Shown here: positions 2 through 51,886 of the stretch, piece after piece
How positions within the stretch are numbered: the stretch's first letter is position 1
Layout of the letters: every line of letters starts with the position of its first letter
From: Balanoglossus misakiensis
Taxonomy: Eukaryota; Animalia; Hemichordata
Length of the DNA: 64,000 bases
Assembly (NCBI GenBank): GCA_040954595.2
Contig: CM082581.2
Coordinates: forward strand, 4,642,699 to 4,706,698
Direction: 5' to 3'
Translations under genes and position numbers: made by a program
Notes under the pieces: generated by a model
The model's input: only the letters and a program-made list of their open reading frames with translations
What the model was told of the DNA's origin: nothing
The model's database searches: none

Positions 2-162
2 AGGCCGAAGGACAGGATTATCTCTATGCTGAAGGCCGAAGGACTGGTTTAGCTCAGTTATTAAGGCCGAAGGACGGTGATACAATGTACCTCTATATTT
101 TAGGCCGAACGACACTATTATCTGTATGCTGAAGACTGAAGGACAGTAATATCTCCAAGCTA
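2..162. repeat. Degenerate tandem repeat, about 31-38 bp units with AGGCCGAAGGAC core (5 units, cut by window start)
   Basis: aggccgaaggac at 2, 33 and 64; aggccgaacgac at 102; agactgaaggac at 133. Intervening segments are partly similar (ttatctctatgctga / ttatctgtatgctga). Confidence 0.7.
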
Positions 163-1637
163 AATTGTCATTATTATCAACAAGTTGCCGCTACTTTCCC
201 TTCAAAGGGACATACATGTTGACGTAGGCATGTATAAACAATAGACTTTTTTCTCAATCTCTCGTATAACCTACAAAACCGTGCAAATTCTAAACTATTC
301 AGGTCTAATCTTGATCGCATTATTTACACGACAATACTTCCTTTATCATGTTTATGTGCATTAAAGTCTCATCTTAGGCCGATATGTGTAACATCTGTTC
401 TGTTCGATTCTCTACCATGACATTGGTATTATAGTTGAAAACACCCACCAAATGTTCTCCTTATGAGCTTGTCATATTTGCTTCGAGCATTGTGCTACCT
501 GTATGCCTGAATAACCCGTGCGTCTGCTCTTCCCTGTTAACCTTCAGTTTAAAACCATTTATCGTTGCGAATGGCGTCGAACGCAAAATGTTAACAGGTA
601 AATTCAAGTATTCGACTTATCCCAAACAGTTTTCTAGTGCTAATATACGACGTCATACAAAGGATCTTCAAGGTCGCAGGTATTATAGAATGACCAACGC
701 AAATGAGAAAACATTAGTTACCCTGGCTACAATGAAAATATACCTTTCTATGCAGTGTATGAAATTGCCTGCACTTGCCTCATCATGCACCCGTCTGTGT
801 GTCGCTATACAATAGAGATTGGTGTAACGACGAAGTTCCGGTCTACATTTTTTTCAATAAACATTAGACCAACTTGCTGATTACTCTAGTCCTTTTTTCT
901 CCCGTTTATAGACAGTAGAGTCTATGGTTACTCCATGCTACGTCTTATCAGTTGCTAATCCAGAATACAAGCTACCGAGCTACCATATGCCATAAACTCT
1001 GAATATCTCTTCGTATATTTTCTAAGCAACTTTTGTCAGAAGCATTATCAACTCGAAGTCAGACTCACCGGATTATTTTTTTTATTTTGTGAACAGAGCA
1101 ACTTCCACTTAACAACATATTGAAGGACCAAAATTCGAACCAATGAAATTAAAAGGGATTGAAACTAATAAAATATGCAAATATGAGTCTTTTGTTTTAT
1201 GCCATGTAAAGGCATAGGGAGAAAATTGCTGATTTGGGGTAAGTCTGAGATCGTGACTAACATACTTAGGATAGTTTGATTTTTAACGTGCAAAATGTCT
1301 TGAACAGGACAAGACCTCCGCCATAATATATTACGGAGCATACTTTACACAAATCACGTAGGCCTAAACTTTGGAGGTTTAAACATGCCGATAAATGGCC
1401 GGGCAAAACAGCATTGTCTATACTACCTGGGTGAAATAATTTTAAAATGCTGGTATATCAGAATTGCAGCGCGGGGGGGGGGGGCGTGACATTTTTGTCA
1501 CGTGCGATTTTTATTCGCTTGTCGGGGAGGATCATCTTTAGTAGATCACCCATCTCTCCGCGCTCGAGCCACCTCCCTGTTGACAATCGAACAGTCCGTT
1601 AAAAAGTCTCAGACAAGGCAAGGCTGTGTGGTTGACG

Positions 1638-23093: not shown

Positions 23094-23777
23094 TCACTCT
23101 CCAGACAATTCTCCCGCGGCAGCCGCCTCCACGATGGCTTTCTTCAGGGGTTTGCTGCGCGGTTTTTTGGCCACTGGTACCTCTACTTCTGGCTCTGGTG
23201 TGTCACCTTCGGCCGCGGCTGTGGCGAGGGGGGCCTTCCTCTTCCTTCCCCGTCCTGATGACCGTTTGCCGGTTGTTTCAGCATCCGGCGTTGCTACGAC
23301 GATCTTGCGGGGTCGCCCTCTTCCTCGCCCCGTGCCTTTGCCCTTCTTCCCCGCGGCCTTCTTTGCCTTCGGTTGTGATTGCTCCTCGCCCGTGCCTGCC
23401 GATTCGGATTTTCTCGGTCTGCCCCTGGCTCGCTTGGGACCGGCGGTGGTGTCCTTTGGCGGGTATTTTCGAGGTCTACCTCTGGGTCTCTTAGGGCCGG
23501 TCTGTTCCACCACGGGTTTGTGTTTCCGTGGCCTGCCCTTCGGCCGCTTCGCTCCTTCAGGCACCGGCTCTTGGATTTTGGGAGGCAGTGGCTTTCGACC
23601 CCGCTTCTTCTTGGGCACCTCGGGTTGCTCTTCCGACGTACCGGCTTCTGCGGTCACGGCAGGCGCGATGTCAGAAGCTGTTTCCAGTGATATTGTTGGA
23701 GCAGAGGTTGCCGGTGAAGCTTCAACATCGTCGGTAGCGACTGCCGTCGTCGTCTCTTTACCTTCCGCGGTGCTCAT
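23094..23777 (-). CDS. HMGA: HMGA-like AT-hook chromatin protein, 227 aa, intronless CDS
   Basis: First ATG at 23777 (MSTAEGKETT). AT-hooks KRPKGRPRK, KRPRGRPRK, KRARGRPRK and GRGRGRPRK, plus hook-like KKRGRKP and GRGRKRK, in a low-complexity K/R/E/P/A-rich protein with no other domain. A candidate 5'UTR splice acceptor (cacttttcctgttgctgtag) lies at 23901-23920 on the minus strand. Confidence 0.85.
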   Translation of the reverse strand: MSTAEGKETTTAVATDDVEASPATSAPTISLETASDIAPAVTAEAGTSEEQPEVPKKKRGRKPLPPKIQEPVPEGAKRPKGRPRKHKPVVEQTGPKRPRGRPRKYPPKDTTAGPKRARGRPRKSESAGTGEEQSQPKAKKAAGKKGKGTGRGRGRPRKIVVATPDAETTGKRSSGRGRKRKAPLATAAAEGDTPEPEVEVPVAKKPRSKPLKKAIVEAAAAGELSGE

Positions 23778-23900
23778 GTCGAATGCAACGGTGTGGCCGT
23801 ACACGTTCGAGACGATCGTTGCTCGCGTTGTCAAATCTCTCGCTTAAAATTTCGTGAGCTGAATTTGTAGCTGAAATCGCGCAGATGTGTACTATATCGA

Positions 23901-24300: not shown

Positions 24301-27300
24301 ATGGCGGACGTCGTTATATTCTACGGCCTGCCGTTCTCAGTAAGTATCTCCACAGTAATATAACCCCCGTCCGTTACTGGAGGCGCTGTGATAATCAGAT
24401 AAAAAAAAGAAGAGAAGTAGATGTAAACCTTGCCACGATCCTCGCTTTTGATATTTTGCTAATTCCCGCCCACGTTGGATTGCACTTGTCGACAGAGTTT
24501 CTGTGATCTCTGCGACCAACATATCGGCGTTCACTTTTCCATCATCACGGCATCATGGCTAATGCATGGGATGACTTTCTCATCCGTCCCACGCATTTCG
24601 ACCCTCACGGCAAGAGTGTGGGAGTTTGGTAGAAAATTGTCAGTATCTTCCAATATGATGTGCAAAACCCGGAAGCGCGTGAAACGTTTTAATAGTCAGC
24701 AGTGGGAGTTCATCTGACGAGTTACCATGGCAACGACAGCCAAGGCGCCCCATGCGAGATTCACAGAAACTGTTACGTGTGCGGCTCACTATTATCAAAC
24801 TTAATACAATAAATTCTTTAATAATTCTTTAATAACAAATGCATTGCAAGAAGAATTGAGCATCTACATATAATTCCATGTCAACTGGGTATCTCAAAAA
24901 ATATTTGGAAATAGGTAATTTCTGTGATCTGTTCGTGTCTGGCTATATTTGTGATTACTCTTTAAAGTTTAATTAAATCACAAGAGTAATATTCTTAATA
25001 TACTCGCCAAAATGGATGCAGTGCTGTGCAGCAGTGAACAATGTTGAGAGAAATGTCATTAAAGGTATACGGTCACCTCCAATTTACATATCGCCATATA
25101 TAGTTGAAATGGCGTATTTGAGTGTTCTAAAGAACGCTTTATTTTCGCGTGTGCCACCCACTGAAAATCTGTGATTGGTCAGATCTCGATTTACCATGGT
25201 AACTGTGGCTAAATTTGTATAGGTGACCGTATACCTTTAATATATCCTCACATAATCACACCAACACAATTTATTTTCTTTTATATCGATAGTGTTATCT
25301 ACAACTATTATTTATATAATCAAATCAGGCATACAGTTTTCAAGTGCTGCCAACAAAAGAGTCTGAAATGGGTTGTCAGGAGATTATACCTCCACAGTAT
25401 CAGACAGATAACTTCACTTCCGTGGCAATCCCTTAAGATGATTTAATCAGCATATTTGTACACATCCGTTTGTTTAAAAAAAAAAAAAACAAATGTTGGC
25501 AGCACCTGAAGACAATTTAGGCGTTTAGGCGGTATCAATCTCAAAGCATTCGTCCAAAAGTTTATTGTGTGGACGCACGCAGATTCAACAAGAATCCTGT
25601 ATATTGTTGATATCGCAAACAATTTAATAAGAGCTTCACTCCTGATTTTATAACAGGGTAAAAGTGCCTACTGTGAAGAAAACTTTTCGACATACAAGCG
25701 AGTCTCAGCCCAAGAAATCTATCGGAATGACCCTTCTACTAGTCTACGGCAGATTATTCTACAGATTATCACTCATCTGAGAAGTGGACATAAAGTTGTG
25801 ATAGATGATGAAAACTGGTCAGATATCACCAGGGCTTCATACATCAATTCTATTCATACCAAGGTAAGGCAGACTATGACATCATTCATAGTGATTCATA
25901 CACATTGTAGCAAGTAAGCACTTTGGACTTGACAGTGGATGAGTGCTTACCCCATTGCCTTAACCCTTTCACCACCATGGTTCAGTCCAAACTCATTGTT
26001 TTCTATGGTGAGGTTGGACCTCGAAAGAGGGAACTGGGGGTGAAAGGGTTCAAGCCCCAATAGCTGCCGATTTTTGCATTATTTTAATGATTTTAAACCA
26101 TGGGGGTGAAAGGGTCAAGGGAGCCCCCCCCCCCCCCCCATTGGGAACCTGCTATACTGATTCATACACCAAGGAAGCCAGTGCAAAAAAAATAACCTCA
26201 CTCAGCCAAAACTTTTCAAGTGCTATGGTATTGAGCAGGAAGTCCGAACAGAATTTAAAGGGACAAAGTCTCTCTCTCGCTGGCCTTTTTCCATTAATTA
26301 TGTTTGATACAAGACGCTGTTTATGTTATTCTACATGTGGATATATGGTGAATCAACATTGGACCACACACAACTTCCATCTCGTTTGTAGGATATGAGA
26401 GTAAAAACTCGCCCAAAATGAATAAATGGTAAAGAAAGATAGATTATTCATTTTGGCGAGTTTTTTCACTCTCCTGTCTACAAGAGGGATGGAAGATGTG
26501 TGTGGTGGAACGTTCATTCACTATATATCCACATGTAGAATAACAAACGTTGTCTCTTATCAAATATAATTAATGGGAAAAAGGGCAGCGAGAGAGAGAC
26601 TTTGTCCCTTTAATCTTCAAAAGCTGATTTGACAATTTGTGGAAGGTAAACTACAGAACTGGCTGAGATATTACTTAAAAAAGCAACCTTAGAAACTCAG
26701 ACTCAGACAGCAGACTCACTCACTCTGGATCAGGTTCTCTTGCTGATCAGACTGAACCGTTTAGTTTCACATGTGTCGGTTTCAGAGTGTGTGTGTACAT
26801 GTACATACAATCAGCTTTAATTCTCTGGGTTTTTCTTCAGTCAGTCTAACTTTGGTCATATTATACAAATTGGATATGCACCTTTAAAATTCAGCATACA
26901 AGTTGATCAGGACAACTTGTCCATTTAAAATCATGCAAGATTTCCGTTGAAACCTTTTGAGTCGACTGTACACTTCCTCTGGGGGCATTACAGTCAAAAG
27001 AATGGGATACCCAACTTTGGTATGACTACCTGAGGGTGAGGAGTTCATGACCTGGGAATGGACTTTTGTTAAATTGTTACAGCATATTGAGATGTATTAT
27101 GTAATGCACTATATGAGAAATCAATATTATCGTTATTATTATGTTACCATTCCTTAGAGCAGGGCCCCTCTTGTTGTGTCTGCCATACCCATTACCCAGG
27201 AGGGCTGGGCATCACATCCTGCAACTTTGCTATCTGTTACCTGTTTGATGACAGACACAAGAACGAAATACAGCTGAAAATAGAAAATGGCAGGGTATAT

Positions 27301-30300
27301 AGTGTCCCACTCATACACAGGCAGACTGCAATAGTTGAGTAGAACGACCTTTTCATGAAACCATGCTGAAATTCAGAAACATGTTCCCTTACACTGTAAA
27401 AATACATGTTGAGGAAACAAAAAGGAATGTCATAATTTCTCTAAAAAAATTAAGGGAAATTAAGGGCAGTTAGGGAAACAGGACAGTATTTATTTTACTT
27501 TCAACTCATCACCAGATTTATAGATAGGAATGGCAGAGTGGGAAAACCAGCAGATTTCAGGGATCTGATGACTGATTTCTTGGAAGATGTATCTTTCAGT
27601 GTTTCTAGAACTGTTCGATCCAGCAGGGACTATGTCATTGACAGTGACTTGTCATGTGATCTTGCTTTAACTTTGAGTTATACGTTTGTAGGCAAATTCT
27701 ACTAAATTTTGCTTGGTTTTTAATAGATTAAAAAAAAACAGATTTAGAATATTCTGCTGAATAACATAAAATTAAGAATATGCTATGTGTGGACAGAAAA
27801 GAAGTGGATATACTTGTTTATGCGTTATACCCTTTAGACAGCAAAAATTCAGAGATGCAAACAAGCAGAGTCTTTTAAAATTTGCACCAATAATAATGTG
27901 TGTATTTACTATTAATCTCACCAGATACCAGACTGTACCTTTGAGTGTGTGACCTTTGAACCCCACAATAAGATGCGAGTGTACTGGGCAAGAGAATGGG
28001 CGTTGGCTGAGCAGTGCCTGGCAACAGCTCCTGTCAATCCGTCACGCGTGATTGACATGTGTCAATCGGACGGCAAATTTGAGAGGTGGTTCAGAGATGG
28101 TGAGGGTACATCAAAGAGACACTTTCTCAAACCACCGTGTGAGAGTGAAGGATTCACCATCACACAGGTGAAAACTCACCTCCAAGCCAAGGTTTTTTAC
28201 AAGGTAAGACAGAAGTAAGTAAAGTATCTGTTTTGCATCTGCTTGTCCTCGTATCAACTGAGCTAGGGGTTTTTCATTTGTTCATTGCTTTTGAAACCAA
28301 ATACATGTAGTCCACTCCAGTCAAATACATAATATGACCCTTAGCCACCGTAAGTCAAAACTTTACGTGCAACTGATGTTGATCACATGAAGATGTGTTA
28401 CTGATATATTCCAGTATCAATAAAATAGTTCACAGACACTGTAGGAGTTGAATGTTCCCTAGTATTTGCCATGTCAACCCATCTTCTGTGTGGATGTCAT
28501 TCTGTAAACAGAACCTGTAAGTTTTATGTACATGTACTGGCATATACATGTAGTACAAGATCACAAGCTCAATATACTCTCCATTTATGAAAGTACAGTG
28601 AAAGTGTGATGCCAACACAATCATAGCTGGTCCCTGACTCTTTACAAACATGTTGTGTTAATGACTTTATTGTACCAAGCAGTATTTCTATCATGCACTT
28701 GTGCTATCCGCAGTTATAGAAATGATTAGACATGCTTACAGACCTTTCCTGCTTTTTCCTGCAGTTTGAAGTACCAGCCCTGTTTATTCAATGGCAGAGT
28801 ATTGTGAAGTCTGAGGATGAGACGTTGTCAGTAGTCACTGGTGTCAAGGACACATTGAGTAAATGGTACCAAATTAATCCTTGCGGTAGAATTATTATCA
28901 TCATAGGTAGACAAAATGGTGAGTTATTGTAATTACAGCTATGGTCACCTGACTTTATACTGCTGTAGGTTTTTTTTCACAACCAAATAACCCTTGCTTG
29001 CTGTTGGTAACCACTCAATACAGAAGCTGTCTTTTAGATAGTAGGGTACATTTTTCAACATCCTTTTCAAAAGTGACTTGTCCAATTGCCCTAAAATTTG
29101 GTATGCAGGTCTCTTGGGCTGATCATTCAAAATTGGTCAGAATCTGCAATATTGAAATTTTTGGGGAAGTTTTTGCCATTATTTTGTGTGACATCTTGAA
29201 TCCTTTTGTTATACAGGTCCTTATAGTGCTCATGATATTTAATATACACATTCTTCATAAAACAAATCCCACATACCGTGGTATAGGCTATTTTATGTTA
29301 AATATAACAACATAGCACTATCAGCCTACATACATGTTTAGGTCACTTTTATATCTGTGTTTTCATATATTTTGCCAAATAATGAGTATAAGACACTTTC
29401 TCATTTTAAGGGATATGTGTTATTCTGTCTTTATTTTAGATTGTGATGAAGAAAACAGCCAGCTAAAAGATATCTTGTTGGAGCTTTGCGACGATTTCAG
29501 GGACTGTCCAGTGTATTTTTGTGGCATTGAAGATGAGATGACCTGCGGTCAGTTTGCCTTGCCCCCGCAGCCTGGTCTCATAGCCTGGCTTCAGAGACTC
29601 CATGGCATTCAGCTCAATCACCGGGGAACCTTGTATTTAGTGGCCACTGCAGCGCATATCAAGTCGGCCGAAGCAGCCGGCGTGAGTCACATGATCGCTT
29701 CTACAGTGTACGCACATCCTGGCATCGTGACGGCGCCGAACTGCGCGACCAAAGGTCACGAACCCTCGCTTCATCGGAATGTGAAACTTCGCCTGCCGAC
29801 GGGGTGTACAGCGGGCGAACCCAGAGTGCCCCTCCAAGACGAGGTGACAGTCGAAAACTTTCTCAGGATTTCCTGTCCAGGGTCTCGCTTTCATGGAGTT
29901 TGTTTTAAGGACATCAACGTTTTTAAAAAGTATCAAGAACTGTACGTAGAACACGCAACGCTGTTAACAGAGAAAGTCAGCAAAATCGACCAGCTCAGAC
30001 AACAGCGACTGCGAGAAAATACCGCACAAGCTGTGACCAAAAATCCTTCAAGGACTACTGACAGATCTCTACCGCAGTGGTTGCTGGGAAAATGTCCGCG
30101 AGATCCCAAACCGGTGTGTTCTCACAGCGAGGCTACAGCAGAGGCTGCTGGGAAAAGGAAGACGTCTCCGAACAAGCAGACATCTAAGTATGTCTTCATA
30201 CAGATTTATCTTTGCAGTGATATGTGTTTCCAATTATGCAGCAGTGTAGAAAACAGCCAACAGGTGGCAGTGACAAAATCTCTCTACATCCCTAATGTCA

Positions 30301-32582
30301 TAGTTCAAAGTTCATCACAGTTCAGCACTTCTGGTCAGACTTGCCAACCAACTGCAAAAGAGAAACAGAAAACAGAAATTATAAACATAGATATGATAGA
30401 ATAACATAAACGGTGTCTTGTATCAAACATAATTAATTGAAAAAGGGCAGTGAGAGAGAGACTTTGTTCCTTTAGTAATAACGACATACTGTGTAAGTAT
30501 ATTTACATACCTCATGAATTATTATTCCAGTTACTGGGCTGATTTTTTCCGGGAATTTCTCAAACAAGGCACTAATTTGTCACATGTCCATATCCTTGAC
30601 ATGTACTACTACTGTTTTCGACATATTACTCTGTAACGACATATAAAGACATGTTACTCTGTAAGTACATTTACATACCAATCATGAGATCGCCAAATTT
30701 TGTCATCAGAAAAAAATATTTTAGATAGTTTACTTGGGTTACTGGTAGTATAGGGGGGGGGGGGTGATATAATACTTACAAAGAAATGAATTTAGTATTC
30801 AGGTCTACCGGTGAACAAGCAAAATAGTATAATTATCCGCAACTCACATTTTTCCAGCTCATGAATTATTATTCCAGTTACCGGGCTGATTTTTCCTGGA
30901 ATTTTTCAAACAAGGCACTCATTTGTAATGTTTCCATATCCTTGACATTTATTACTATGTATTGTTTTCCAGGAAATGCCATATTTTGATATTTTCTTAA
31001 GGCCACAATTTACTCATTTCTCAAACTATTTCTGTACAATGACTGTACCACCATGGTCTCGCATGTAAAACCAGTACTCACACATCATTTACAATGTGGT
31101 CAGATGCTTCATTGATCTCCTGGCTGTGTGTATCTGTTTAACCCTTACTCCCCCAGTTCCCTCTTTAGTGGTCCAACCTTACCATACAGAACAGTGGGTT
31201 TGGACCAGGGTTTGGACTGAACCATGGTGGTGAAAGGGTTAAATTTTGTCCCCGAAATGAATCAATAGAGGCTGTAACAGCGTTCATTGTACTCTTCGTA
31301 AACTATTTTATACTCTAGATTAACCTGTATCTTACAGGATTCAAATATGAAGCCACTGCACTGTAGTAATTCGTGTTGCCAGGAACGCAACATACAAAAC
31401 CACTCGGCCAAATGCTCACCTCCAAAAAAAGTGTTGCAAATCAAAATGCTTATGAAATCTTCGCATATATGCTTCAATACTTTTTATCACATTCCAATCT
31501 AATTTTAATTAGTGATTAGGGCATACTGTTTGATTAATGGCAGCCTATAGTATTTGTGAACGAAATTCAGTAAATACAGTAAACAGAAATGTAGTCCAGA
31601 TTTTTATATGCCACCTACATCAGATATACCATACTAAAGTCTTCCAAATACCTGCATTTTTCCGTTTCTTCCAGGCATAAAATGTCAAGATCATTGTCAA
31701 GGTCGACTACTGTGTATTGTATGAATGAACTGGAATTGGTTGAAACTGCAAAAATGGTATTGAAAGAAGTAAGCAGAATAAACTTTACATGATGCCTGTA
31801 GATACACTGTAATTCTCCCATTTTAATTTGCACTTTCTATCAACCTGCTGGGTGATCATTTGTAGATTTTCTCTTTTTAAATCACACTTAATGTGAGTTT
31901 ATTACCTGTAAATACCAACAACTCATGAACTGTTTCAAGATGAAAAGATTAGACAGAGATAAACTTAACTTTTCAGTTCTGATATTTCAAATTCTCCTTC
32001 AGATTGGCTACAGGAATCAAGATTTAGTGAAATCAGAAACCGCAAAGAATGTAGTTTCACCTGAGAAAATGCAGAAACTAAATATGGAGACAAATGCTGA
32101 CAGTCGTCTCATTGTTGATAGGCCTATCCTAAGTGATGCGTCAACTGAAGAGGACTGTGAGGTCCACAGCGATGAAGAGCGCCCTCTATCGGATGGATTA
32201 TCTGTTGACTCTGAAAACGAAAGACAGAGGTAAGATGTCAATTGTACTCGTAGTTTGAAGGGTTTCCGTGATCACATTTTTAAGCACAAACATTGCAATA
32301 ACATTCCTTTCTACTTTGTCTTGAAACAGAGGCAAGCAGCCGGGCGAGCGGGGTCGAAGTGCATCGCCAAAAAGTGATGGTCAAGTCGGAATTCCTCACA
32401 ACCAAGGTGACATGGAGACTGATGCAGTTGCCGTTGACTACAGCGATTCAGTGGATAGTACAACTGAGGCTGCCGATGTTCCCATCACACCATCGACAAC
32501 ACAAACCAAAACAACTGATAAAGCAGAAAAGAAGAAAGTCACCCCAGGACTTGATCTAACTTTCTTAGATGATATTTTCTAA
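24301..32582 (+). CDS. About 662-aa protein: polynucleotide-kinase-like P-loop (AAA_33-type) + degenerate HAD-IIIA phosphatase-like domain + C-terminal CYREN/MRI-like NHEJ module
   Basis: Exons 24301-24339, 25657-25863, 27925-28203, 28765-28906, 29440-30187, 31675-31768, 32003-32229 and 32330-32582. All introns are GT-AG, with phases 0,0,0,1,2,0,2 consistent, giving 1989 nt open to TAA. Walker A GLPFS|GKS spans exons 1 and 2. VVIDDEN...TRASYI and PPCESEGF resemble the PNKP kinase. ALFIQWQSIV ... LPPQPGLI ... IKSAEAAGV resembles a GmhB/PNK 3'-phosphatase fold. RSLPQW, TVYCMNELELVETA and the terminal FLDDIF resemble CYREN. AATAAA at about 32635. Confidence 0.85.
24721..24734. promoter_or_regulatory. 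RFX X-box palindrome, with an ETS-like CCGGAAG at 24669, in intron 1
   Basis: GTTACCATGGCAAC matches the X-box consensus GTNRCCATGGYAAC. A similar site, GTTGCTATGGCAAC, is at 22625-22638. Confidence 0.45.
25063..25236. mobile_element. MITE family A (Kolobok-like), copy 4
   Basis: TTAA|AGGTATACGGTCACC...GGTGACCGTATACCT|TTAA. Confidence 0.88.
25964..26048. mobile_element. piggyBac-like MITE family B
   Basis: TTAA|CCCTTTCACC...GGTGAAAGGG|TTCA. It is the reverse complement of the copy at 31142. Confidence 0.75.
26259..26609. mobile_element. Fold-back (near-palindromic) TTAA-flanked MITE family C (Kolobok-like)
   Basis: TTAA|AGGGACAAAGTCTCTCTCTCGCTG...CAGCGAGAGAGAGACTTTGTCCCT|TTAA. Arms of about 165 bp pair around a loop of about 20 bp. 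Confidence 0.85.
30398..30473. mobile_element. Solo terminal arm of MITE family C
   Basis: agaataacataaacggtgtcttgtatcaaacataattaattgaaaaagggcagtgagagagagactttgttcct matches the arm of 26259-26609. Confidence 0.75.
30511..30960. repeat. Dispersed direct duplication of about 105 bp (30511-30615 and 30858-30960)
   Basis: ctcatgaattattattccagtta.[c/t]gggctgattttt...caaacaaggcact...ccatatccttgacat occurs twice. Confidence 0.8.
31142..31238. mobile_element. piggyBac-like MITE family B
   Basis: TTAA|CCCTT...GGTGAAAGGG|TTAA, with CCC..GGG termini and TTAA TSD. Confidence 0.8.
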
Positions 32583-33815
32583 AAGCTGAGCCTATATTAC
32601 AATTAACGTTAAAAACTTTATTTCTTTATAAAAAAATAAAATCATTTATTTTTTATATGTATCATATAAGAATGGCTGTAGTTTTATGGTGAATATGACC
32701 TATATATGTTAGTAAATGTGTGTTAGAGTGACAACACTATATCTAACTGCACTATAGTAAATTCCACGAACTGTAAATCACCAGACTGAAGGACATAATG
32801 TCATTTAGACTCAAAAAATGTTGTATCTAAAAAGGAAACTTATGAGTTTCACCGATATGAACTGTTACTGTAAATGATATTCTTAGTTTGACAGCTACAG
32901 CTGCCAGAAACATGAACGAACGAATGAATGAATGAATAGTGAGCTGTACTGAAGCCAAACATTTTGCATTGTAAACGACAAAATCTAAAAAGCTATGCTT
33001 AGAGGGCGCCCTGGCAAAAGTGTGATAAGCGTTGCGTATTTACAGTTTGGGGCAATTTTTGTCTTGGTCAAGAGTTTTCTCTGAAACCGCTTGTCTGAGT
33101 GCCTTGAAATTTGGTTTGCAGGGTTTGATGTCTAGGGATGATCAGTAATACGACAAATAATCGCGTTATCGCCACTGGGGGCATGCGCTGACGGACTTAT
33201 ACTGTGATCAAATCTCTATTTATGAATCGAGTCCCAGGGCTTGGATTCAGACCATAAGCAAAACTAACCATGTGTTATTAAATAACTCAAGCAGCGTCAT
33301 TGAATACTCCAGATGTTCTCAGCATCAATACCATCCCAACCCCCATTGTTGATTCAGTGTACACACAACTTTTAATTATACGTATTAGACATACTAGTAA
33401 GCTGGCGGTACACGCACAGTCCCTCCACCCGTACACGTAACCTAGTTTCCCATTGAGATCGCCTCCTCACTTGAACATTAAGCGCATTATGGCGTAATTT
33501 TCGGATTATTTGCTGAGCGCAACTTTTAATATAATTTCGAAATAGTCAAGATCTACGCATACACGGCCCATAATTTCATAAGATTCCAAGTTCGTTTGAT
33601 GGCGCCGATGCGTTACAAAACTTCAATGGATGGTCGTTCAGTGATGACAATAAGCTGAGCACGGCACCTGTCATCAATGAAAATGAGTCGCGCGCATTAC
33701 AAGAACGTTTAGTTCTGGTTATGCAGACGGTGGAATTTAGCAGATGACTTAGCGGTATTCTTTAAATGCTCTATGCGTAACTTTGTGGAATACACAGGTT
33801 GATGGCACCGGTCAC

Positions 33816-34889
33816 ATGGCGATTATGGATACTGAAGAAGGAATGCGGGAGATATTCCCGCCAAGTCCGGCACCAACACAAAATGAGAGCAACCATACCG
33901 CCTTCGTCATTTTACAGAGCTGCGTCCTGGGACTTCTCGTCTTCGGCATCATCCTGGCGAACGTCATCATACTGATGACCGCCATGAAACTGCAGCATTT
34001 GCCCGTAGCCACGAAACACCTGGTGATTTCGCTCGCTTTGGCCGATTTGGGAGTCGGCATCAACACGAGTTACAGCTTCATATCCAGCGTGGTCGGGTAT
34101 TGGCCCTTCACGTGGGTGTGGTGCCTGGTGACTGGGATACACGCCAAAGTTTTCACGTCTGTGTCTGTTCTCTCTATAGTTCTCCTTGTAGGGGAGCGCT
34201 ATGTTGCCATCGAGTACCCCTTCAAATACGCGTCGCTGGTAACACTTTGGCGTGTCAGGATATGCATTGTGATAACATGGAGTATGGTGGAAATTTTTGC
34301 GTGGATTCGATATGGAATATTCCAAGGCGATTTTATCAACTACAACGACATATACAAATCCTGTAGTCCGAACTACGGCGATCCTGATATCGTCGGGGAA
34401 ACCATAAGCACGATGATTCTGTACATTTTCGTCCCCGCTCTGATTATAATCGTTCTCTGCGGCCGAATCGCCTATATTTCACACAAGCACGCCAGACAGA
34501 TACAGGACATGTCCGTTGTAGGTCCACGTACAGAAGATGGCGACCAGTCAACGCAAGATTCAAATCAACGACCAAAACTGACCAGACGACACCTGAAGGG
34601 CTTCAAGACCATGTGCTTAACGGCTGGATGTTTCATCGTCGCGTGGTTTCCCTTCGCTGTCACATCGATTTATACATCTTTATCTGGAAGTGTCGTAGAC
34701 CCGTGGATCGCATTTCTCACTTCAACGTTGGCTATATCCAACAGCTTTTGGAATGCGATAATCTATAACGTCATGAGCAAGAAATTTCGTCGAACGGCCA
34801 GGACTGTACTGGGATGCAACGAGAACGTCATTCAGGCGGAGGACAGCACGGGCACCGACAACAGTGATAATCCAATGGCCACGAATTGA
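33816..34889 (+). CDS. Class A GPCR, orphan amine-receptor-like (trace amine / histamine H2-like scaffold), single-exon CDS
   Basis: Seven hydrophobic segments. SLALADL (TM2), WPF..WC (ECL1/TM3), ERYVAI.YPFKY, AWFPF (TM6), SNSFWNAIIY...FR (TM7/H8). N-glycosylation sequons NES and NHT. First ATG at 33816, following a splice acceptor at 33797. Confidence 0.9.
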   Translation: MAIMDTEEGMREIFPPSPAPTQNESNHTAFVILQSCVLGLLVFGIILANVIILMTAMKLQHLPVATKHLVISLALADLGVGINTSYSFISSVVGYWPFTWVWCLVTGIHAKVFTSVSVLSIVLLVGERYVAIEYPFKYASLVTLWRVRICIVITWSMVEIFAWIRYGIFQGDFINYNDIYKSCSPNYGDPDIVGETISTMILYIFVPALIIIVLCGRIAYISHKHARQIQDMSVVGPRTEDGDQSTQDSNQRPKLTRRHLKGFKTMCLTAGCFIVAWFPFAVTSIYTSLSGSVVDPWIAFLTSTLAISNSFWNAIIYNVMSKKFRRTARTVLGCNENVIQAEDSTGTDNSDNPMATN

Positions 34890-35947
34890 CTCGACCAGAG
34901 AAACGTAATTACATGTATCTTCAACGGGCGAAGAGTTTGAAAATCAACTTAATATTGGTGCATCCGTCACCAGCGATTTCTCGGGCATTTGTGAAGCAAT
35001 TTTTGAACAACTTGGCCTGAGTATGGTGCCCTAATGGTCTGTCCATACACGCCTCATGTTTTCACGAAACAATCTCATTACAAAATATTGGGTGCGAAAC
35101 TTAACAGACAAACTGATGATGATATCCAATACCGTACGGATGTCCTCGCCGTTCAAAATCTTTTGGTATATCTTTCCTGGGGGTGTTTTGTTGCTAAATC
35201 GGATTATATTATATATATTAAAAAAAAAACGTTCTAGTGTGCAAACACTGTTGCTAAGCCTATTAATTATACAAGGTCTTACCATGTCATACCATTTCTC
35301 GCAAATGTCGGTATGAATATTGCATTTCCCATGATATAACATCAGCCCACATTTATTCTACATAAATATATATTGCCTCATTTCACATGTTAGATGCGAT
35401 TCGATAATATAGGTGAAGCTACTTCATCGCAAGCTTTATTATGTCGGCATACAGAATAACATAATATGTGCTTCTGTTGCGCCTGTGCGCAAATTGTAGT
35501 GGATCTATGAACCATGGTACCACGGTGTGCAACCTGGGGCGATAGAGTCAGGACCAGCAGCTGTTGTGGCATTTACAGTACTTTTAAGAATAACTGCCTA
35601 ACGTCTTCTTCTGTACTGTTAAACATTTGTTCACCATGGGAGTTTAACGTTTCTCCTGCCAATCATTCAGATCTTGACTAAAATCACGTCGATTATCAAA
35701 CATGTTTTTAGAAGAAATTCATTTCGCTAACATAGCTGACGTAAAGATGTGTTCGAAATATTGTTTCTTCCGGCATAATCACTAATGGGTGTCATTGAAG
35801 CCAATACACGTCTCGTATGATTTCCTCTAAAATGTTCTTCTAATTTCCTCCTGTCCTTAGCCTTCTCAATCCTGATGATATGTTTGATCTACCTCTGCCT
35901 TCTTTTATTTGACCTTTATCCTTCTTCGCGTATACATGTATACGCTT

Positions 35948-36433
35948 TGTATGTATGTATGTATGTATGTATGTATGTATGTATGTATGTATGTATGTAT
36001 GTATGTATGTATGTATGTATGTATGTATGTATGTATGTATGTATGTATGTATGTATGTATGTATGTATGTATGTATGTATGTATGTATGTATGTATGTAT
36101 GTATGTATGTATGTATGTATGTATGTATGTATGTATGTATGTATGTATGTATGTATGTATGTATGTATGTATGTATGTATGTATGTATGTATGTATGTAT
36201 GTATGTATGTATGTATGTATGTATGTATGTATGTATGTATGTATGTATGTATGTATGTATGTATGTATGTATGTATGTATGTATGTATGTATGTATGTAT
36301 GTATGTATGTATGTATGTATGTATGTATGTATGTATGTATGTATGTATGTATGTATGTATGTATGTATGTATGTATGTATGTATGTATGTATGTATGTAT
36401 GTATGTATGTATGTATGTATGTATGTATGTATG

Positions 36434-36464
<31 letters not shown>

Positions 36465-36553
36465 GTATGTATGTATGTATGTATGTATGTATGTATGTAT
36501 GTATGTATGTATGTATGTATGTATGTATGTGTGTGTGTGTGGGGGGGGGGGGG
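35948..36553. repeat. (ATGT)n microsatellite of about 580 bp ending in (GT)n and a G-run
   Basis: Direct reading. It produces the spurious MYVC/YIHT ORFs. Confidence 0.98.
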
Positions 36554-37119
36554 TTCTGTATACACGTAATCTCAAGAGCGCCTGAACGGACTCAAATCAA
36601 ATTTGGTACACGGTATCTTATTGCTGATATCATCCACATTAGAATTAGCATCGTGGATGTAATAGAAGACGCTGTTTGTTGAGACTGCAACTGATATTAC
36701 GAGCAACAGGATAGTTTTACATAATGCTATCAAATAATGCGCTGCATCCATCCCCGGTAGTATCGAACACAAACTAGCATTCGAAAAATAACGAAATTAC
36801 ACCAGAACTTGAGACGAGCAGTAGGCCGTGCCGCCGCACAGAGCAGCGCCACCAAACATCCTGACTGCATGTGTAACAACGATGATGATCTTTTTGAACT
36901 CGGTATGTGACAAGTCATAATTCTCTAAGCTACACGTGTACTTAACTCGGGGTTTTTATCCCCCTCTCCTAAGTTTGCAGTTGACGTTGCTGTCATGGTA
37001 ATTTCACGAATAATATCACATGTCTCTAAATTATTAAAACGTTGAGACGCAAAGAGTAACGTGTATCTACTGCACGTTTAGACTAATTAGATCCTATCAA
37101 AAACGGTTAAGTCAACCTA

Positions 37120-41714: not shown

Positions 41715-42833
41715 CTACACCTCCGATTGGTTGCGATTGTCGGAGCACGATGTCCGATTGGTGGATCCACTGATATGTTGAGCCGATGAGTCACCTGGCG
41801 CTCGCGATCGGCGACACTTCGCTATGGAGTTGAAGACCCCGGCATACTCCTCCCGAAAGGCGTCGTGCATGAGGCCGTAAAAGAACGGGTTCACGCAGGT
41901 CGTTGTCATCGCAACGGCGTGGAATACATGATAAAACAAGCTCATGTTCTCGTTGTCAACCAACTTGAAATCAAAGTTCGAGACGAGAATCCAGATATTG
42001 ATGGGCAGCCACCCGATGGCGAATATGATGATGACGGCGACCAGCATTTTCGTGGTTTTCAGCTTCCTTCTCGTGTCCGTCACCTGCTGGCTCTCAGTGC
42101 GCACGCCCGGCACCACGCGCCGGTTCATGTGCAGCAGGATGCGCAGGTACGATATGCCGATGATCAGCAGCGGCAACACGCACTGCAGGAGAAACATCAC
42201 GATGTCATAAACCCCCTTCTCGGTTGTGCTCCGCCACTGCTCCGAGCACTTGACGACCTGGAACAGCCCCGGAATGGCGATCACCTCTATCCTGGAGAAG
42301 AATCCGATGGGCATGGCCAGGCAAGCGGAAACGATCCAGATGGCGATGACCACAAAGAAACTGGCTTGCACCGAGATCCTCGTCTTCATGGGGCGCACCA
42401 CAACGTAGTACCTGTCAACCGCAATGAGCGTCAGCGTCAAGGTGGACACGCAGACGGACAGAATCTGGACAGCCGGCACGAAGTTGCACATAAAACCTCC
42501 AAATATCCAGTTGTCCTGAAACGACGCGGCCAACGTGAACGGCAAACAGAGCACGCATACAGTCACGTCACTCACAGCAAGATTTCCTATGAAGACGTAC
42601 GTGGCCGTGTGCATCTTCTTGCTTCTGAGGATGGCGAAGATCACCAGAAGATTGCCGAGTATGCCGAAGATGATGATAAGAGAATTCACAATGATGATGA
42701 TGTATTTGAAGGCCGGGGCCTTGTGTCTCTCACTGAACAGACTGTTCTGCAGCGCGTCGAGGTAATCTTCGTGCCCATGGAAACCGTAATCGAAGCTTCC
42801 TTGAGAGTTCGTGTCTGAGGAATTCGTGTCCAT
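41715..42833 (-). CDS. Class A neuropeptide GPCR, NPY / prolactin-releasing peptide / sNPF receptor-like, 372 aa, single-exon CDS
   Basis: GILGNLLV, FIGNLAVSD..C.LC.PFTL, W.FG..MC, VSTLTLTLIAVDRY, C.E.W in ECL2, KTTKML, WLP, HAVAM...CVNPFFYG...FR. A 5'UTR splice acceptor (ttatatattgcag) lies at about 42867. Confidence 0.92.
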   Translation of the reverse strand: MDTNSSDTNSQGSFDYGFHGHEDYLDALQNSLFSERHKAPAFKYIIIIVNSLIIIFGILGNLLVIFAILRSKKMHTATYVFIGNLAVSDVTVCVLCLPFTLAASFQDNWIFGGFMCNFVPAVQILSVCVSTLTLTLIAVDRYYVVVRPMKTRISVQASFFVVIAIWIVSACLAMPIGFFSRIEVIAIPGLFQVVKCSEQWRSTTEKGVYDIVMFLLQCVLPLLIIGISYLRILLHMNRRVVPGVRTESQQVTDTRRKLKTTKMLVAVIIIFAIGWLPINIWILVSNFDFKLVDNENMSLFYHVFHAVAMTTTCVNPFFYGLMHDAFREEYAGVFNSIAKCRRSRAPGDSSAQHISGSTNRTSCSDNRNQSEV

Positions 42834-45800
42834 TGTTGAAACCCGGTGACAACGTTACGTTGTTAACTGCAATATATAAATAAAACATGACGGATATGAT
42901 AAAAAAACCCAGAATAATCTGACACACGGTGTTTATGTGTAATTTAGTGTGTTTCGCTTAAGATTTCCTGTGATATTACACTTTTGGGAATACTAGTACC
43001 CTTCCATGACATTTGCCAACGGGATGGAATTATTGTCTTACAATCTTTTGCAACAACAACTACATGGCCCTCAGATTCCGTCATATACAAAACCATAAAA
43101 CACACAAACTTGAATCAGTTAGCTAATATACAGAAAGCATTTAATAGCGGGCAGTTTTACGGTTTAACGGACCGATAACTTCAATCGGTAATCCCTGTAA
43201 TTACACGTGTTCATTCTACTGGTGCGTCGGATTATTCTCCATTTGACATGTTGAAGATTATTGACAGAATGTAATTAAGGTATTATTTCCGACAGCACCG
43301 TTCGTAAAGCTCTGTCAAATTCCTACAAAAAAACAACACTTTGACAAGAAGACGAATTTCACTGCTCTAATGCTCGGCGAACCTAATTCTGTGGAAACGG
43401 ATAGAATACTATTGAAGCATGGTGATGTCTAATTCTCCCCAGAGTGTTGGCAATCCATTTCAAGAAATTCAAAAAACACTCCCAACATCACAAGTATATT
43501 TGTTATAAGCAAATGACATAAGGGCACGTTTTTAGTCGTAGGGTTAGACAAGCCCACTAGTCGCTTGGCCTTCAGTTTTGTTCCTTATATTATTTACATG
43601 TATAAAGATTCTTTCTTTATTGACGTGTTCGCCGTCACTGTACTTATTACTAGTATCTTGCGTAGGCTCGTTTGCCTTGGGTGAGATTCGGTACTGAGCC
43701 TCGGTTACTGTTCGCCTATGCGGTCTACGACTTACGAGTTCACTTAAAAACAAGCTATATTATATGTAACTCTGGACAATAAATAACACACACCTTCTTA
43801 CAACCCAAATTTATACTGTTTTCCCTCCGCCACATCACTTGGTTAGAGACAGTGTACAGACTGTGTCCTCAGGAGAATCATTATCTACGTACATTGGGGA
43901 ATAATACAGTAATCACTGCATGGTAAGATGAACGGATGGTTGAATGAGTGAGCCAGGCTGTACAATTACAAGCACTGTGTGGTATTTGGCATTCATGGGG
44001 TTGTCTACAGTTGAAATCAATTTCGTGCGTGAATTCAGAGATTTCGTTGCGTATGTTAGCTTGAAAACAGAATCTTTTTCATCGTTCCAGAGTCTCCGAA
44101 ACCCCGTGCGGATATAATAAGCCTTGTTATTGCGCACGGTTAATGTTCTTCTTGTGCGTAACATTTGCAACATTATTACTCGCATGTTGTATACGTGACA
44201 TTACTCAGAAAATATCACTCAATAGGGAAATGAAGATCTTGGGTAATTCAAAACAATCCTAGTGCCGTGTTGTGTTATGGATGAGAGCGCATTCAGCTCA
44301 AGACAGTAATGTTCGATGATCGCGGCGCCGAAAGGTAAATCTCAACTAGTCCACGTGAGTGCGAAGCGGCCTTAAACCCAAATCGTAAACGCTGTATCGA
44401 TCAATTCTATTTGCTTGCGGGTGGAGATACCTTCGTCGTTCAAGGTAGAGAGAAAAAAAGCGAAAAACAACCAGTGATACTTCTGGTAAATGGAAACCTG
44501 CGGAAGCTATGGAGTAATTGAATTTTAACGAATGCCGAAATTGGGAGGTAAACGAGAGACAACGTTGATTACAGCCCGTTCCCGGCAGGACTTGCCGCTT
44601 GCCTCTGATGTGGGCATAATTACTCCCTGTGGTTCTAGATACGACCTTCGTTCAACGCGCAATCGCTTTCTACTCCATCCGGAAGCCCACGGCAGACCAT
44701 TGTGAGCTATGCATGGCACAGTTCACATTATAAAATAACGTTTTTTCTCACTCTCTCTCTTAAATCAGACTGCACACACATTTCTGACGAATGTATATGC
44801 AAAGTGCCAACTGTTGCTTTAGTGGCCATCCCTGGCGTTCCCGGGAGTCCGTGCATTAAGGCTTTGACAACTGCACAGAAAGATAATCGTCATTTGTTTT
44901 GACAGGGTCCTCGCGAGTTGCTTAACCTTGCAGTCGAGTACTAGTGGTAACCCAAGAGTTCACGAACCTGCCGCGAGAATTTTCTGACAAATCTACATGT
45001 ACGTGTAAGTATAGGCAAAGCATTACTGTCACGGGAGTATTAGCTTGTTGAATAAAGATTAGCGACCTCTTAATTCAATCTACTCCAAAATGCACTTGAT
45101 TCCATCTAGAAACTAAACTACTCAGAGAGAACTCACAACGGAAAATAAGTTGTAATTTTTGAATAAGCTTAACGGTGAACAGTGTGGTCTGTTCGAAACT
45201 CTAACAAACAACTCACGAATGCTTATTAACTCCACAAAATCGCTCATGGCCTACCAATTATATCTGAAACTGAAAACAAGCTGTGGGTTTCAGTTTCTTG
45301 TCACGAACATTTACAAAAGCACTTGATTTTTAATTACATTTCATCAGAAAGCTTTTTCCTAGAACTTGGACGTATTAAGTAATCGTATTACGTTCAGAAG
45401 ACGTTGGGAGAATTTCCAGCTGCAAGTATCGATGTCTAATTGAAATATTTTACTTCATCAAAATATTGAAAGCTGCAGTGTGAAAAATAACATTGAATGA
45501 CATCGTTTGTGGGGTATTTTTTTTCCAATAGAATGGTCTCCATGCAGGAAATCTGGAATGTTCAGTTTTGCAACTGAAAAGGATTCGAGCGGCGCTGCTC
45601 TTTGACTCATGACATTTAAGTGAGCACACAAAGCCAAGTTTGCTGGAAATGTTTTACTATTTCCTGGCTCTCAAGAAGTGTATAATTTGATTTGGTCTAT
45701 GCGTTGGGTGTTTGGGCGTGCAGTACTGCGCAATGACGCATTCGAGATTAGTTGAACAGCAGAAATTTCAGTCATTGTTCCCAGTGAGTGGACAATCTGA

Positions 45801-48997: not shown

Positions 48998-49033
<36 letters not shown>

Positions 49034-49248
49034 CACACACAAACACACACACACATACATACATACACACATACATACATACATACATACATAAACACAC
49101 ACACATACATACATACACACATACATACATACATACATACATACATACATACATACATACATACATACATACATACATACATACATACATACATACATAC
49201 ATACATACATACATACATACATACATACATACATACATACATGTACAT

Positions 49249-49281
<33 letters not shown>

Positions 49282-49370
49282 TACATACATACATACATAC
49301 ATACATACATACATACATACATACATACATACATACATACATACATACATACATACATACATACATACAT

Positions 49371-49410
<40 letters not shown>

Positions 49411-49633
49411 ACATACATACATACATACATACATACATACATACATACATACATACATACATACATACATACATACATACATACATACATACATACATAC
49501 ATACATACATACATACATACATACATACATACATACATACATACATACATACATACATACATACATACATACATACATACATACATACATACATACATAC
49601 ATACATACATACATACATACATACATACATACA
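48997..49633. repeat. Compound microsatellite (ACAG)n-(AC)n-(ACAT)n
   Basis: Direct reading. Confidence 0.98.
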
Positions 49634-51886
49634 TGCAAAAACACATGAGTGCATGCATGTGGATGTGTCGCCTATATACTATGGCTTACACAAAGTTGTG
49701 ATATTTTCCAGCTAACCTCACATATTAGGCCTATACACGCAAATCTTTATGAAAAAAACCCAAATGAATACTTGATTACTGTAACATGTGCACGTACCTG
49801 TAGGAACGATGAAGTGCTTCTAACCATAAACCATACCAGTACGGATACAGTGGCAGACATGAAGGTCTTCTGATTGTAGTCTTACTGCGAATGCAATACG
49901 TGTCCCCACAATATAAGTCGCAGACGCAGTCGAAACCACTCACAGTGTGGGGGTGGACACGGTCTCACAACCTGCCAATCGGCTCAGAGCTGTACATTCA
50001 ATGCTTATTAGATGGGATATCTTCCATAAGCTTCAGGTAATGGAACAATGCCTTCTGGCCAGCAATATCAATACAGATATGAAAAAAACATATCAATGAT
50101 CATAATGGGAGGATGTTCGACGACGAGCGTCACCATATCACTGACATCATTGCAGTAGCATGATCAGAATTGAGCATTTCTCGGACTTCATAGTGATTTG
50201 GGTCATGTTGCTCCTCCAGCCGTTTCCACAGTTGAAACAACACCATCATCATAAAATATAAGGACGAAAGTATATATCGTATATGTAGAATACATATTCC
50301 AGCCACATAAGCCGTACATCTTATTGCAAATACCGCCGGTAGAATTACTGAAGCTTCGAATGCCGCCGCCAAGAATGCCTTTATCAGACTCTGTAGACGA
50401 TGGTAAACAAAAAAAAGACCCAAGCTGTCGCTCAGTAAGAATTGGAGTACCCTAACTATTACACCGAGACATTACAAATCGTTTACCCAAAAGAGAACTT
50501 AAATTGTCAGTGAAAAAACATCAGCAAACACGTACGCTTCATCCAACACAGAAGTAGATGGATGATTGAGGGTACTTGTGCATGCAGGACAGTCTCATTT
50601 CCAAACGCACTTGTTTACTGATAATATTGTATGTGATATTTTGAAACCATTTAGTTTCGCTGTACGCTCATTTCGATAAGAAAATACGCTTTACCCGAAC
50701 ACAGAACTATAGAGTGATGTTTATAGTTTTTACTTGTGCGCTCAAGAATAACTTTCGCGTTTTCATGATATTTGCTGGTTTACCATAATGTGATATTTGA
50801 AACCCTTCAAGTATAGTATTTTACTGTGCGCCCCTTCCTATCTTAAAAAACCCAGAATAATATGAACCGGGCGAGGGTTATTTTACATTTTACTGAAGTC
50901 AAACATTTTGAGACCGGACATCAACGATTCAATAATATCATGTGTCACGACGCGAAGTGGAACAGAATGCGATATCATCATTTGGTGAATCATCTGAAAT
51001 AGCCGGATATTCATGTTTATACGTAAAAGTAGAAGTTCTTGTGTATATCACTCTAGATTTTCCGAGAATGTGTTTTGTTAGCGGGCTGCACGGCGGTTTT
51101 CTATTTGACCGACTCTTCGATACGTGCTGCGTGTGATCCGTTGAGACTAATAAAATGGCAAGCAAAAACCATATCGACCACAAAAGCTTATATCGTGCTC
51201 ATACGAAGATGTTATCAAGTTGTTATCAGATATTTTATATTTTTCTTCAACTTGTCAAATGAGACTGTCAATTATTTCAATACCCATCTTTCCTTTAGAT
51301 GTCAATTATTCAGCAGTACTACATTTACTACATGAATTGTGAATCGCCAAGTAATAAGCTTATATGCAATATTCCGCACGTGTTTGTGATGCCTGAAAGT
51401 GTCTGTTGCCGCTAATTTCACGGTGACCACTATTTCGAGGAAGAGTTGTTAAATTCTGCACTTATAATAGTTTCATACACAGCTTGACTCGCTACCCTTC
51501 GCTGCAGTAAATAACATAGGCTAGTGAGTTCTCGCATAACCATTTTTATCACTGGGTGGTGAAAATAACAATAATACACATGCATGAATTCAATTTAACG
51601 AACAATCTCGTAATACATGCATGTGTATACACTACCGCCAACATTTTATATTAAAAGTTATGTTATCCTTAACTTCGGTATGCTTACTTTGGTAAACGGT
51701 CCATGAACTCTTGATTTAGTTCTAGAAAAGTGTTTCTTATACTTAGGCCTACTAGTATCATCGCATGCGCAGTACTAACATAATCGAAATATATTGCACA
51801 GTATTCTGTCTTGATGAATGAAAAGATTCAAGGTCAGTTGCTTTGAAAGAAAAAAAATATATATCAATTGAGCCTCATTAGAAAGA

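Follow-up and report, generated by a model that had tools for sequence, protein, structure and literature searches.

A predicted double pseudo-enzyme resembling PNKP carries CYREN-like motifs in an acorn worm and in other animals from sponge to amphioxus

A 64,000-nucleotide stretch of the Balanoglossus misakiensis genome (contig CM082581.2, positions 4,642,699 to 4,706,698; hereafter the window) contains an eight-exon gene at 24301-32582 on the forward strand. Its predicted protein begins with a kinase fold and a HAD fold, both resembling those of animal PNKP, and ends in a tail carrying, in order, three motifs like those of the Ku-binding protein CYREN (also called MRI). Both enzymatic domains have lost catalytic residues, and relatives with the same architecture are found from sponge to amphioxus. 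We propose, with a probability of about 0.65, that the protein is a Ku-tethered, multimerising MRI-like adaptor in which a dead PNKP-like module serves to hold or read DNA ends.

Splicing the eight exons yields a single frame of 2001 nucleotides that encodes 666 amino acids and a stop, with 0 internal stops, and all seven introns of this predicted gene model (7/7) are GT-AG and consistent in phase. An earlier note on this DNA had described the eight exons and the single frame as we find them but put the length at ~662 amino acids. Exon 1 (24301..24339; residues 1-13) encodes the first strand and the first half of the P-loop, GLPFS|GKS, which intron 1 interrupts, and matches relatives at 82-85% by tblastn. 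Exon 2 (25657..25863; residues 14-82) encodes part of the PNKP-like kinase fold with P-loop Lys15, the sequence VIDDEN and the conserved Arg44, Arg72 and Lys82; exon 3 (27925..28203; residues 83-175) encodes the second half of that fold with the WAREW lid. The HAD-IIIA fold starts in exon 4 (28765..28918; residues 176-227), and its remainder lies in exon 5 (29440..30187; residues 227-476), together with an ordered accessory subdomain and a Ku-binding motif of the APLF type (R-x-x-P-x-W), assigned by sequence: RSLPQWL, at 30063..30083, from residue 435. Exon 6 (31675..31768; 94 bp) encodes the CYREN-like strand-helix module TVYCMNELELVETAKMVLKE (31709-31768), in which TVYCMNE starts at residue 488. 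Exon 7 (32003..32229; residues 508-583) encodes an acidic tail that is disordered in a relative's model, and exon 8 (32330..32582; residues 583-666 and stop) a basic patch, KKK, and then the XLF-like terminal motif, LTFLDDIF-stop (32556-32582), with which the frame ends. A candidate polyadenylation signal, AATAAA, follows at 32635..32640. All of these features are on the forward strand, and after coordinate splicing the interrupted P-loop, exon 6 with its 94 bp and each of the tail motifs fall where the earlier note had them.

Comparison with relatives confirmed that the predicted eight-exon gene is real, beyond chance. In tblastn searches with six relatives, exons 1-6 and the end of exon 8 were matched in order, and no second copy of the gene was found within the window. 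Exon 7 and most of exon 8 gave no match in these searches and encode a poorly conserved tail (32/133). Residues identical to Glandiceps XP_077992120.1 numbered 115/169 in the kinase, 79/143 in the HAD part, 24/32 in exon 6 and 10/12 at the C-terminus. Junctions 1, 2, 3 and 6 fall within gap-free Glandiceps alignment, and junctions 4, 5 and 7 are close to small gaps or within the variable tail, junction 7 being placed by splice signals and frame alone. We left two further candidate exons, near 27158 and 27516, out of the gene model; the frame does not need them and neither had a tblastn match.

The family is ancient in animals. A phmmer search with exon 5 against 1.84 billion representatives gave 45 matches, of which 30 were looked up, and 20 clusters carried names. 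These comprise Glandiceps, Saccoglossus, Ptychodera (two), Patiria, Diadema and Branchiostoma among hemichordates, echinoderms and amphioxus, and, elsewhere, Littorina, Haliotis, Lymnaea, Dreissena, Mactra, Mytilus, Pinctada, Lingula, Lineus, Tubulanus, Acropora, Orbicella and Sycon. No vertebrate, tunicate, arthropod or nematode was among the 20 named clusters; of the 15 matches not looked up, five group with molluscs in the tree. A word-index search with exon 5 gave 0 of 3205 candidates where phmmer on the representatives did match. Beyond "SWIM-type domain-containing", the named clusters bear no functional name and are otherwise "uncharacterized". Kinase, HAD and tail occur together in single records from hemichordates, echinoderms, amphioxus, molluscs, Lingula, nemerteans, corals and Sycon. 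In addition, two Logan contigs of 2241 and 2295 nucleotides encode 658 and 541 amino acids across the parts; since their coding spans these parts, they are intron-free and probably represent transcripts. A tree built from 27 cores set molluscs (99/99), hemichordates (99/100) and corals (100/99) each to one side of a branch, did so weakly for echinoderms and nemerteans, and made the window protein sister to Glandiceps (98/96). This rough match to animal phyla is consistent with inheritance by vertical descent since early animals, and with an acorn-worm-like origin of the window. The family is thus not the lineage-specific fusion that the earlier note had considered. Three matches (P0035, P0037 and P0042) were excluded as spurious or repeat matches, and neither fragments nor isoforms entered the conservation and motif counts, which use sets of 30 aligned rows and of 21 proteins (the window protein and 20 named full-length relatives). 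In some members a SWIM-type finger (CxC...CKH) follows the core and precedes the Ku motif: these are the corals P0059, P0058 and P0024, and the sponge and its sister (P0039, P0036). Pfam SWIM was above cut-off in Acropora, and the finger was also read from the sequence pattern.

AlphaFold models of relatives, which stand in for the window protein, predict the two folds. The Glandiceps model (681 amino acids, 36-row alignment) has a predicted local distance difference test score (pLDDT) mostly >90 at residues 20-435 and <50 over most of the tail; projected onto the window protein, about 430 of 666 residues would be ordered. Its N-terminal domain has the mouse PNKP kinase as best match (Foldseek E 1.9e-8) and superposes on 3u7f (mPNKP) with Z 15.8 and a root-mean-square deviation (rmsd) of 2.7 over 144 aligned residues, ahead of bacterial Pnk (14.5) and T4 (12.9). 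Sequence profiles gave similar but weak leads: PNKP chains were the top five of nine PDB matches (E 0.03), and the kinase half of TIGR01663 was matched in 7/8 relatives, with a best E of 4e-8 and all scores far below cut-off. For the HAD fold, a 263-residue stretch from amphioxus (pLDDT 92) matched GmhB (Z 12.6), mll2559 (12.0), HisB-N (11.6) and PNKP (11.3; 3zvl, rmsd 2.7, 136 aligned), with other HADs at <=10.3. By these models, residues 1-175 have a PNKP-like kinase fold and residues 176-320 a HAD-IIIA fold of the PNKP group, which is not uniquely PNKP, as GmhB ranks above it. An accessory subdomain at about residues 320-418 adds ~100 ordered residues past the HAD fold. The domain order, kinase before HAD, is the reverse of that in PNKP, and relatives start at the kinase strand with the FHA domain absent. 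The earlier note's kinase, following HAD-like domain and missing FHA domain are all borne out, whereas the AAA_33/PNK Pfam match that it expected came only below cut-off for AAA_33, and in relatives alone. Pfam and PDB searches with single exons gave nothing useful. In the ESM Atlas, exon 5 gave PNK3P/HAD leads, all sub-0.9, and the tail had no match.

Both active sites are altered. In the HAD domain, the nucleophile site (register taken from the aligned range 4..158 to 162..330) is Gln in 22, Glu in 8 and Asp in 0 of the 30 rows, and the window protein reads QWQ in place of the DxD of DxDxT (Gln184 codon, 28789-28791, exon 4). At the putative motif III lysine, placed by eye from the KPxxG pattern, Pro stands in 27/30 rows, and the motif IV acids are absent. 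The phosphatase is therefore likely to be catalytically dead, in agreement with the earlier description of a pseudo-phosphatase. In PNKP, Asp396 is the general base and Arg395 binds substrate (PMC2764422). This pair aligns with Ala31-Gln32 of the window protein (numbers counted from the printed alignment; Gln32 codon, 25711-25713, exon 2), the Asp396 site being Asp in 1/30 rows and the Arg395 site Arg in 0/30. The P-loop has also decayed, with its Lys in 21/30 rows and the full GxxxxGK[ST] in 15/30, while Arg44 (28/30), Arg72 (27/30) and Lys82 (30/30) are better kept than the P-loop Lys. These sequences suggest that the kinase is likely dead as well, and loss of the PNKP general base makes an end-processing enzyme, as the earlier note had proposed, unlikely.

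The tail carries R435-x-x-P438-x-W440-L441, T488-V-Y-C-M-N493 with a matching hydrophobic helix, and KKK...FLDDIF-stop. These three CYREN-like motifs, already noticed in this order, are the best-kept blocks of the family: conservation is 0.60-0.69 over the motifs, against 0.44-0.46 in the folded domains and ~0.3 in the linkers. Among the 21 full-length proteins, 20 have PxW[MLI], 16 the strict RxxPxW, 20 the strand-helix and 15 the terminal motif, by patterns that miss some visible variants; in non-gap rows, the Trp of the Ku motif is kept in 31/31 and the Pro in 30/31. A helix is predicted at residues 515-528 of the Glandiceps model. Terminal-type motifs, (F/L)LD(D/S/N/E)I(F/I), recur, with five in the tail of Branchiostoma lanceolatum (P0047) and two each in Glandiceps and Patiria. 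The LTFLDDIF end may correspond to the human CYREN terminus, ...EIFFS. The terminal KKK...LTFLDDIF-stop fits the verbal definition of an XLF-like motif (PMC4831024). In human MRI, R11, P14, W16 and L/M17 serve Ku80 vWA binding, T52-V53-Y54 serve binding to the ERCC6L2 HEBO domain, Y54-C55-M56-N57 and helix residues 64-69 serve multimerisation, and an XLF-like motif occupies 150-157 (bioRxiv 10.64898/2026.07.22.740027, bioRxiv 10.1101/2025.11.28.691009, PMC12179622, PMC4831024). TVYCMN at residues 488-493 is identical to human MRI 52-57. The Arg-to-Thr spacing is mostly 31-63 in the family and 41 in human MRI (R11, T52), and the joint chance of TVYCMN with RxxPxW[LM] 25-80 residues upstream is ~4e-6 per 1e7 residues, calculated post hoc. 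A two-copy prediction of the strand-helix module scored 0.01 without using the alignment, which is evidence neither way. From these motifs, we infer that the tail is very probably homologous to CYREN and that the protein likely binds Ku.

These features suggest how the proposed adaptor may work. RSLPQW would dock in the Ku80 vWA pocket at double-strand breaks, the TVYCMN strand-helix would multimerise the protein and/or bind the ERCC6L2 HEBO domain, as in human MRI, and the terminal Phe motif may provide a second Ku/DNA-PK contact. The dead kinase cleft, with Arg44, Arg72 and Lys82, could grip or cap ends (5'-OH or overhanging ends, for example) and leave them unchanged, and Ku tethering would replace the FHA-XRCC4 route of PNKP. 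By parsimony, vertebrate CYREN is probably the family protein minus its folded N-terminal two thirds. More tentatively, and in our estimate at somewhat less than even odds, CYREN in the animal ancestor was a pseudo-PNKP tethered to Ku. This PNKP paralogue with reordered domains would have acted as a non-catalytic reader of end chemistry and handed blocked or overhanging ends to Ku and ERCC6L2, with vertebrates keeping the adaptor tail and corals and sponges bearing an extra SWIM finger.

Several observations weigh against the Ku-tethered adaptor, and alternatives were considered. The kinase/HAD exons and the TVYCMN exons might form two genes or separate isoforms, as Ptychodera flava (P0003, P0005) would suggest with its two half proteins (XP_070541482.1 and XP_070541481.1); of the Saccoglossus records (P0002, P0046), the newer one (version 2) lacks the kinase, and exon 5 of the window remains readable for 73 codons into intron 5. 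However, the P. flava break lies inside exon 5, off any junction, both halves are isoforms of one locus, and the abnormal tail, GNIVLGFKYSTH, looks like the frame-shifted reading of the window at the same spot, GNLVFSGHCSAY, which points to a one-base indel in the P. flava record. For most named relatives one record holds the parts, in the same order. We consider separate genes or isoforms exceedingly unlikely; the parts belong together in one gene, as first proposed. Alternatively, the family could be an unrelated PNKP paralogue whose likeness to CYREN arose by convergence or independent capture of Ku motifs. Such motifs have little length and are shared by APLF, WRN and MRI, and RxxPxW is present in >600 proteins (PMC4831024); it also arose in 426/200000 shuffles of the window protein. 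Exact TVYCMN is hemichordate-specific among the relatives (Asn at that column in 4/31), and the Acropora cervicornis record has no Ku motif. The Pfam MRI match predicted near the 31675 exon did not appear, in a search with no positive control where the shared stretch is ~25 residues. Two tail-motif searches returned no vertebrate CYREN (1 match among 27 candidates, and 11 among 1775, all of the family described here), likewise with no positive control and with a word filter that may have excluded vertebrate CYREN; the tail-motif profile had no match among PDB chains. Because neither Pfam MRI nor a vertebrate CYREN was retrieved, homology rests on short motifs. Nevertheless, three motifs in the same order and with spacing that brackets the human value, together with a six-residue identity in deuterostome relatives of vertebrates, argue for common descent, and a PSI-BLAST/jackhmmer survey that covered proteins acting in NHEJ (non-homologous end joining) reached a sea-urchin fusion (bioRxiv 10.1101/2023.05.26.542399). 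Convergence thus seems very improbable.

The nature of the folded module is less secure, and DNA-end binding, proposed from three basic residues and ancestry, is the weakest step of the adaptor reading. Where the P-loop is kept, the kinase could be active; the protein would then pair a 5'-OH polynucleotide kinase, tethered to Ku, with a dead phosphatase. The window's own P-loop, GLPFSGKS, is intact, as in half of the rows; a Walker-B-like Asp and the lid Arg, both kept in the window protein, are each present in 20/30, and Glu33, beside the lost Asp, is acidic in 19/30. Mouse PNKP D396N keeps 23% activity on recessed ends, and some members of the PNK fold family have no base at this site (PMC2764422). 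In contrast, PMC13066744 terms the D396N mutant inactive and reports that hnRNPUL1 (Asn at the Asp396 site) and hnRNPUL2 (Glu) are inactive, with N456D restoring activity to hnRNPUL1. With the Asp396 and Arg395 sites nearly or wholly lost across the family and the P-loop decayed in the other half of the rows, we regard an active kinase as unlikely. It is also doubtful, to a slightly greater degree, that the tail is a true CYREN-type Ku adaptor and the module works away from DNA ends, as a structural, nucleotide-stabilised or protein-binding scaffold or as an RNA binder. This would suit a folded core that is not net basic (47 Lys and Arg against 49 Asp and Glu) and whose best-conserved columns are mostly Trp, Pro, Gly and Leu. 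Vertebrate CYREN works without any folded module (bioRxiv 10.64898/2026.07.22.740027), and the dead domain of hnRNPUL1 mainly regulates flanking disordered regions and binds RNA (PMC13066744). Yet Arg44, Arg72 and Lys82 have outlasted the P-loop Lys, and both domains are nucleic-acid end-handling folds retained from sponge to amphioxus, which favours a dead module that holds or reads ends.

Other features lie around and within the gene. An intronless, AT-hook-rich, HMGA-like open reading frame (23097-23843, reverse strand; Pfam AT_hook below cut-off, E 0.022) stands head-to-head with the CYREN-like gene, ~480 bp away, and the stretch between them has a CpG observed/expected ratio of ~1.0, against 0.28 in intron 2 and 0.40 in intron 5. 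This layout and the high CpG are consistent with a shared promoter. Intron 2 contains an imperfect palindrome of 360 bp (26255-26613, 83% self-complementary), probably an element like a miniature inverted-repeat transposable element, with a partial copy in intron 5 (30393-30474); further dispersed repeats occur in introns 1, 2 and 5. Elsewhere in the window are two single-exon rhodopsin-family G-protein-coupled receptor genes (33753-34886, forward, and 41718-42854, reverse; 7tm_1 E 8e-32 and 2e-57), a sulfotransferase-like open reading frame (2376-3587, forward; Sulfotransfer_2 below cut-off, E 0.001), and long TATG/CATA tetranucleotide microsatellites (about 35900-36580 and 49000-49700) that give spurious open frames.

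The earlier note had put the architecture forward as a candidate undescribed one. One sentence in a 2023 preprint does mention a protein of sea urchin in which a PNKP-like part is joined to a Ku motif of CYREN type (bioRxiv 10.1101/2023.05.26.542399); this is very probably the family described here, which has sea-urchin and sea-star members among our phmmer relatives. That sentence concerns an N-terminal Ku motif alone, and the main text of the preprint says nothing of range, domain order or catalytic state and reports no experiment. The literature searched, in which subscription papers were mostly out of reach, held no other description, and the available text of 10.1101/2023.12.12.570754, PMC8549938 and PMC6995585 has nothing on the family. 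New here are the presence of all three CYREN-like motifs, the sponge-to-amphioxus range, the reversed domain order, the finding that both catalytic sites are lost, and the variants with a SWIM finger.

Among known systems, vertebrate CYREN/MRI (C7orf49, 157 amino acids) shares R-x-x-P-x-W-L/M, the T-V-Y-C-M-N strand with its amphipathic helix, a disordered tail and, probably, a terminal Phe motif, all in the same order. It differs in being small and disordered and in starting at the Ku motif, where the family protein has ~430 folded residues ahead; its linkers and tail are shorter, and the searches made gave no profile-level match between the two. Of the NHEJ factors, CYREN has been called the least conserved, and there is dispute over whether it inhibits or stimulates, with an effect that depends on overhangs. 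A long form, spread over most of the major animal groups sampled, would supply CYREN with an origin and would show that the Ku motif, the TVY strand and the terminal Phe have been kept since sponges; if the ancestral protein was a pseudo-PNKP, this would explain both that origin and the end-structure-dependent effects. Animal PNKP (FHA-phosphatase-kinase; TIGR01663) is closest to the family in kinase fold and sequence and has a HAD of the same IIIA group, whereas the family has the order kinase then HAD, no FHA, added Ku motifs and an extra subdomain, and has lost the equivalents of Asp170/Asp172 and Arg395/Asp396. T4 Pnkp also has kinase then HAD and can be aligned with residues 18-330 of the model (Z 12.9, though the rmsd is 13.7); it is an active RNA-repair enzyme with other domain packing and no Ku motifs, and each family domain is nearer to PNKP. 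WRN is an active exonuclease/helicase whose folds are unrelated to the family. The dead PNK domain of hnRNPUL1, a protein linked to double-strand-break repair, likewise has a PNKP-like kinase fold without Asp396, and it binds NTPs and RNA (PMC13066744); hnRNPUL1 differs as a SPRY-dPNK RNA-binding protein with no HAD and no CYREN motifs. By analogy, it offers a precedent for a dead PNK domain that still binds nucleotides and RNA, and the family described here would add a PNKP-derived double pseudo-enzyme as a candidate end sensor.

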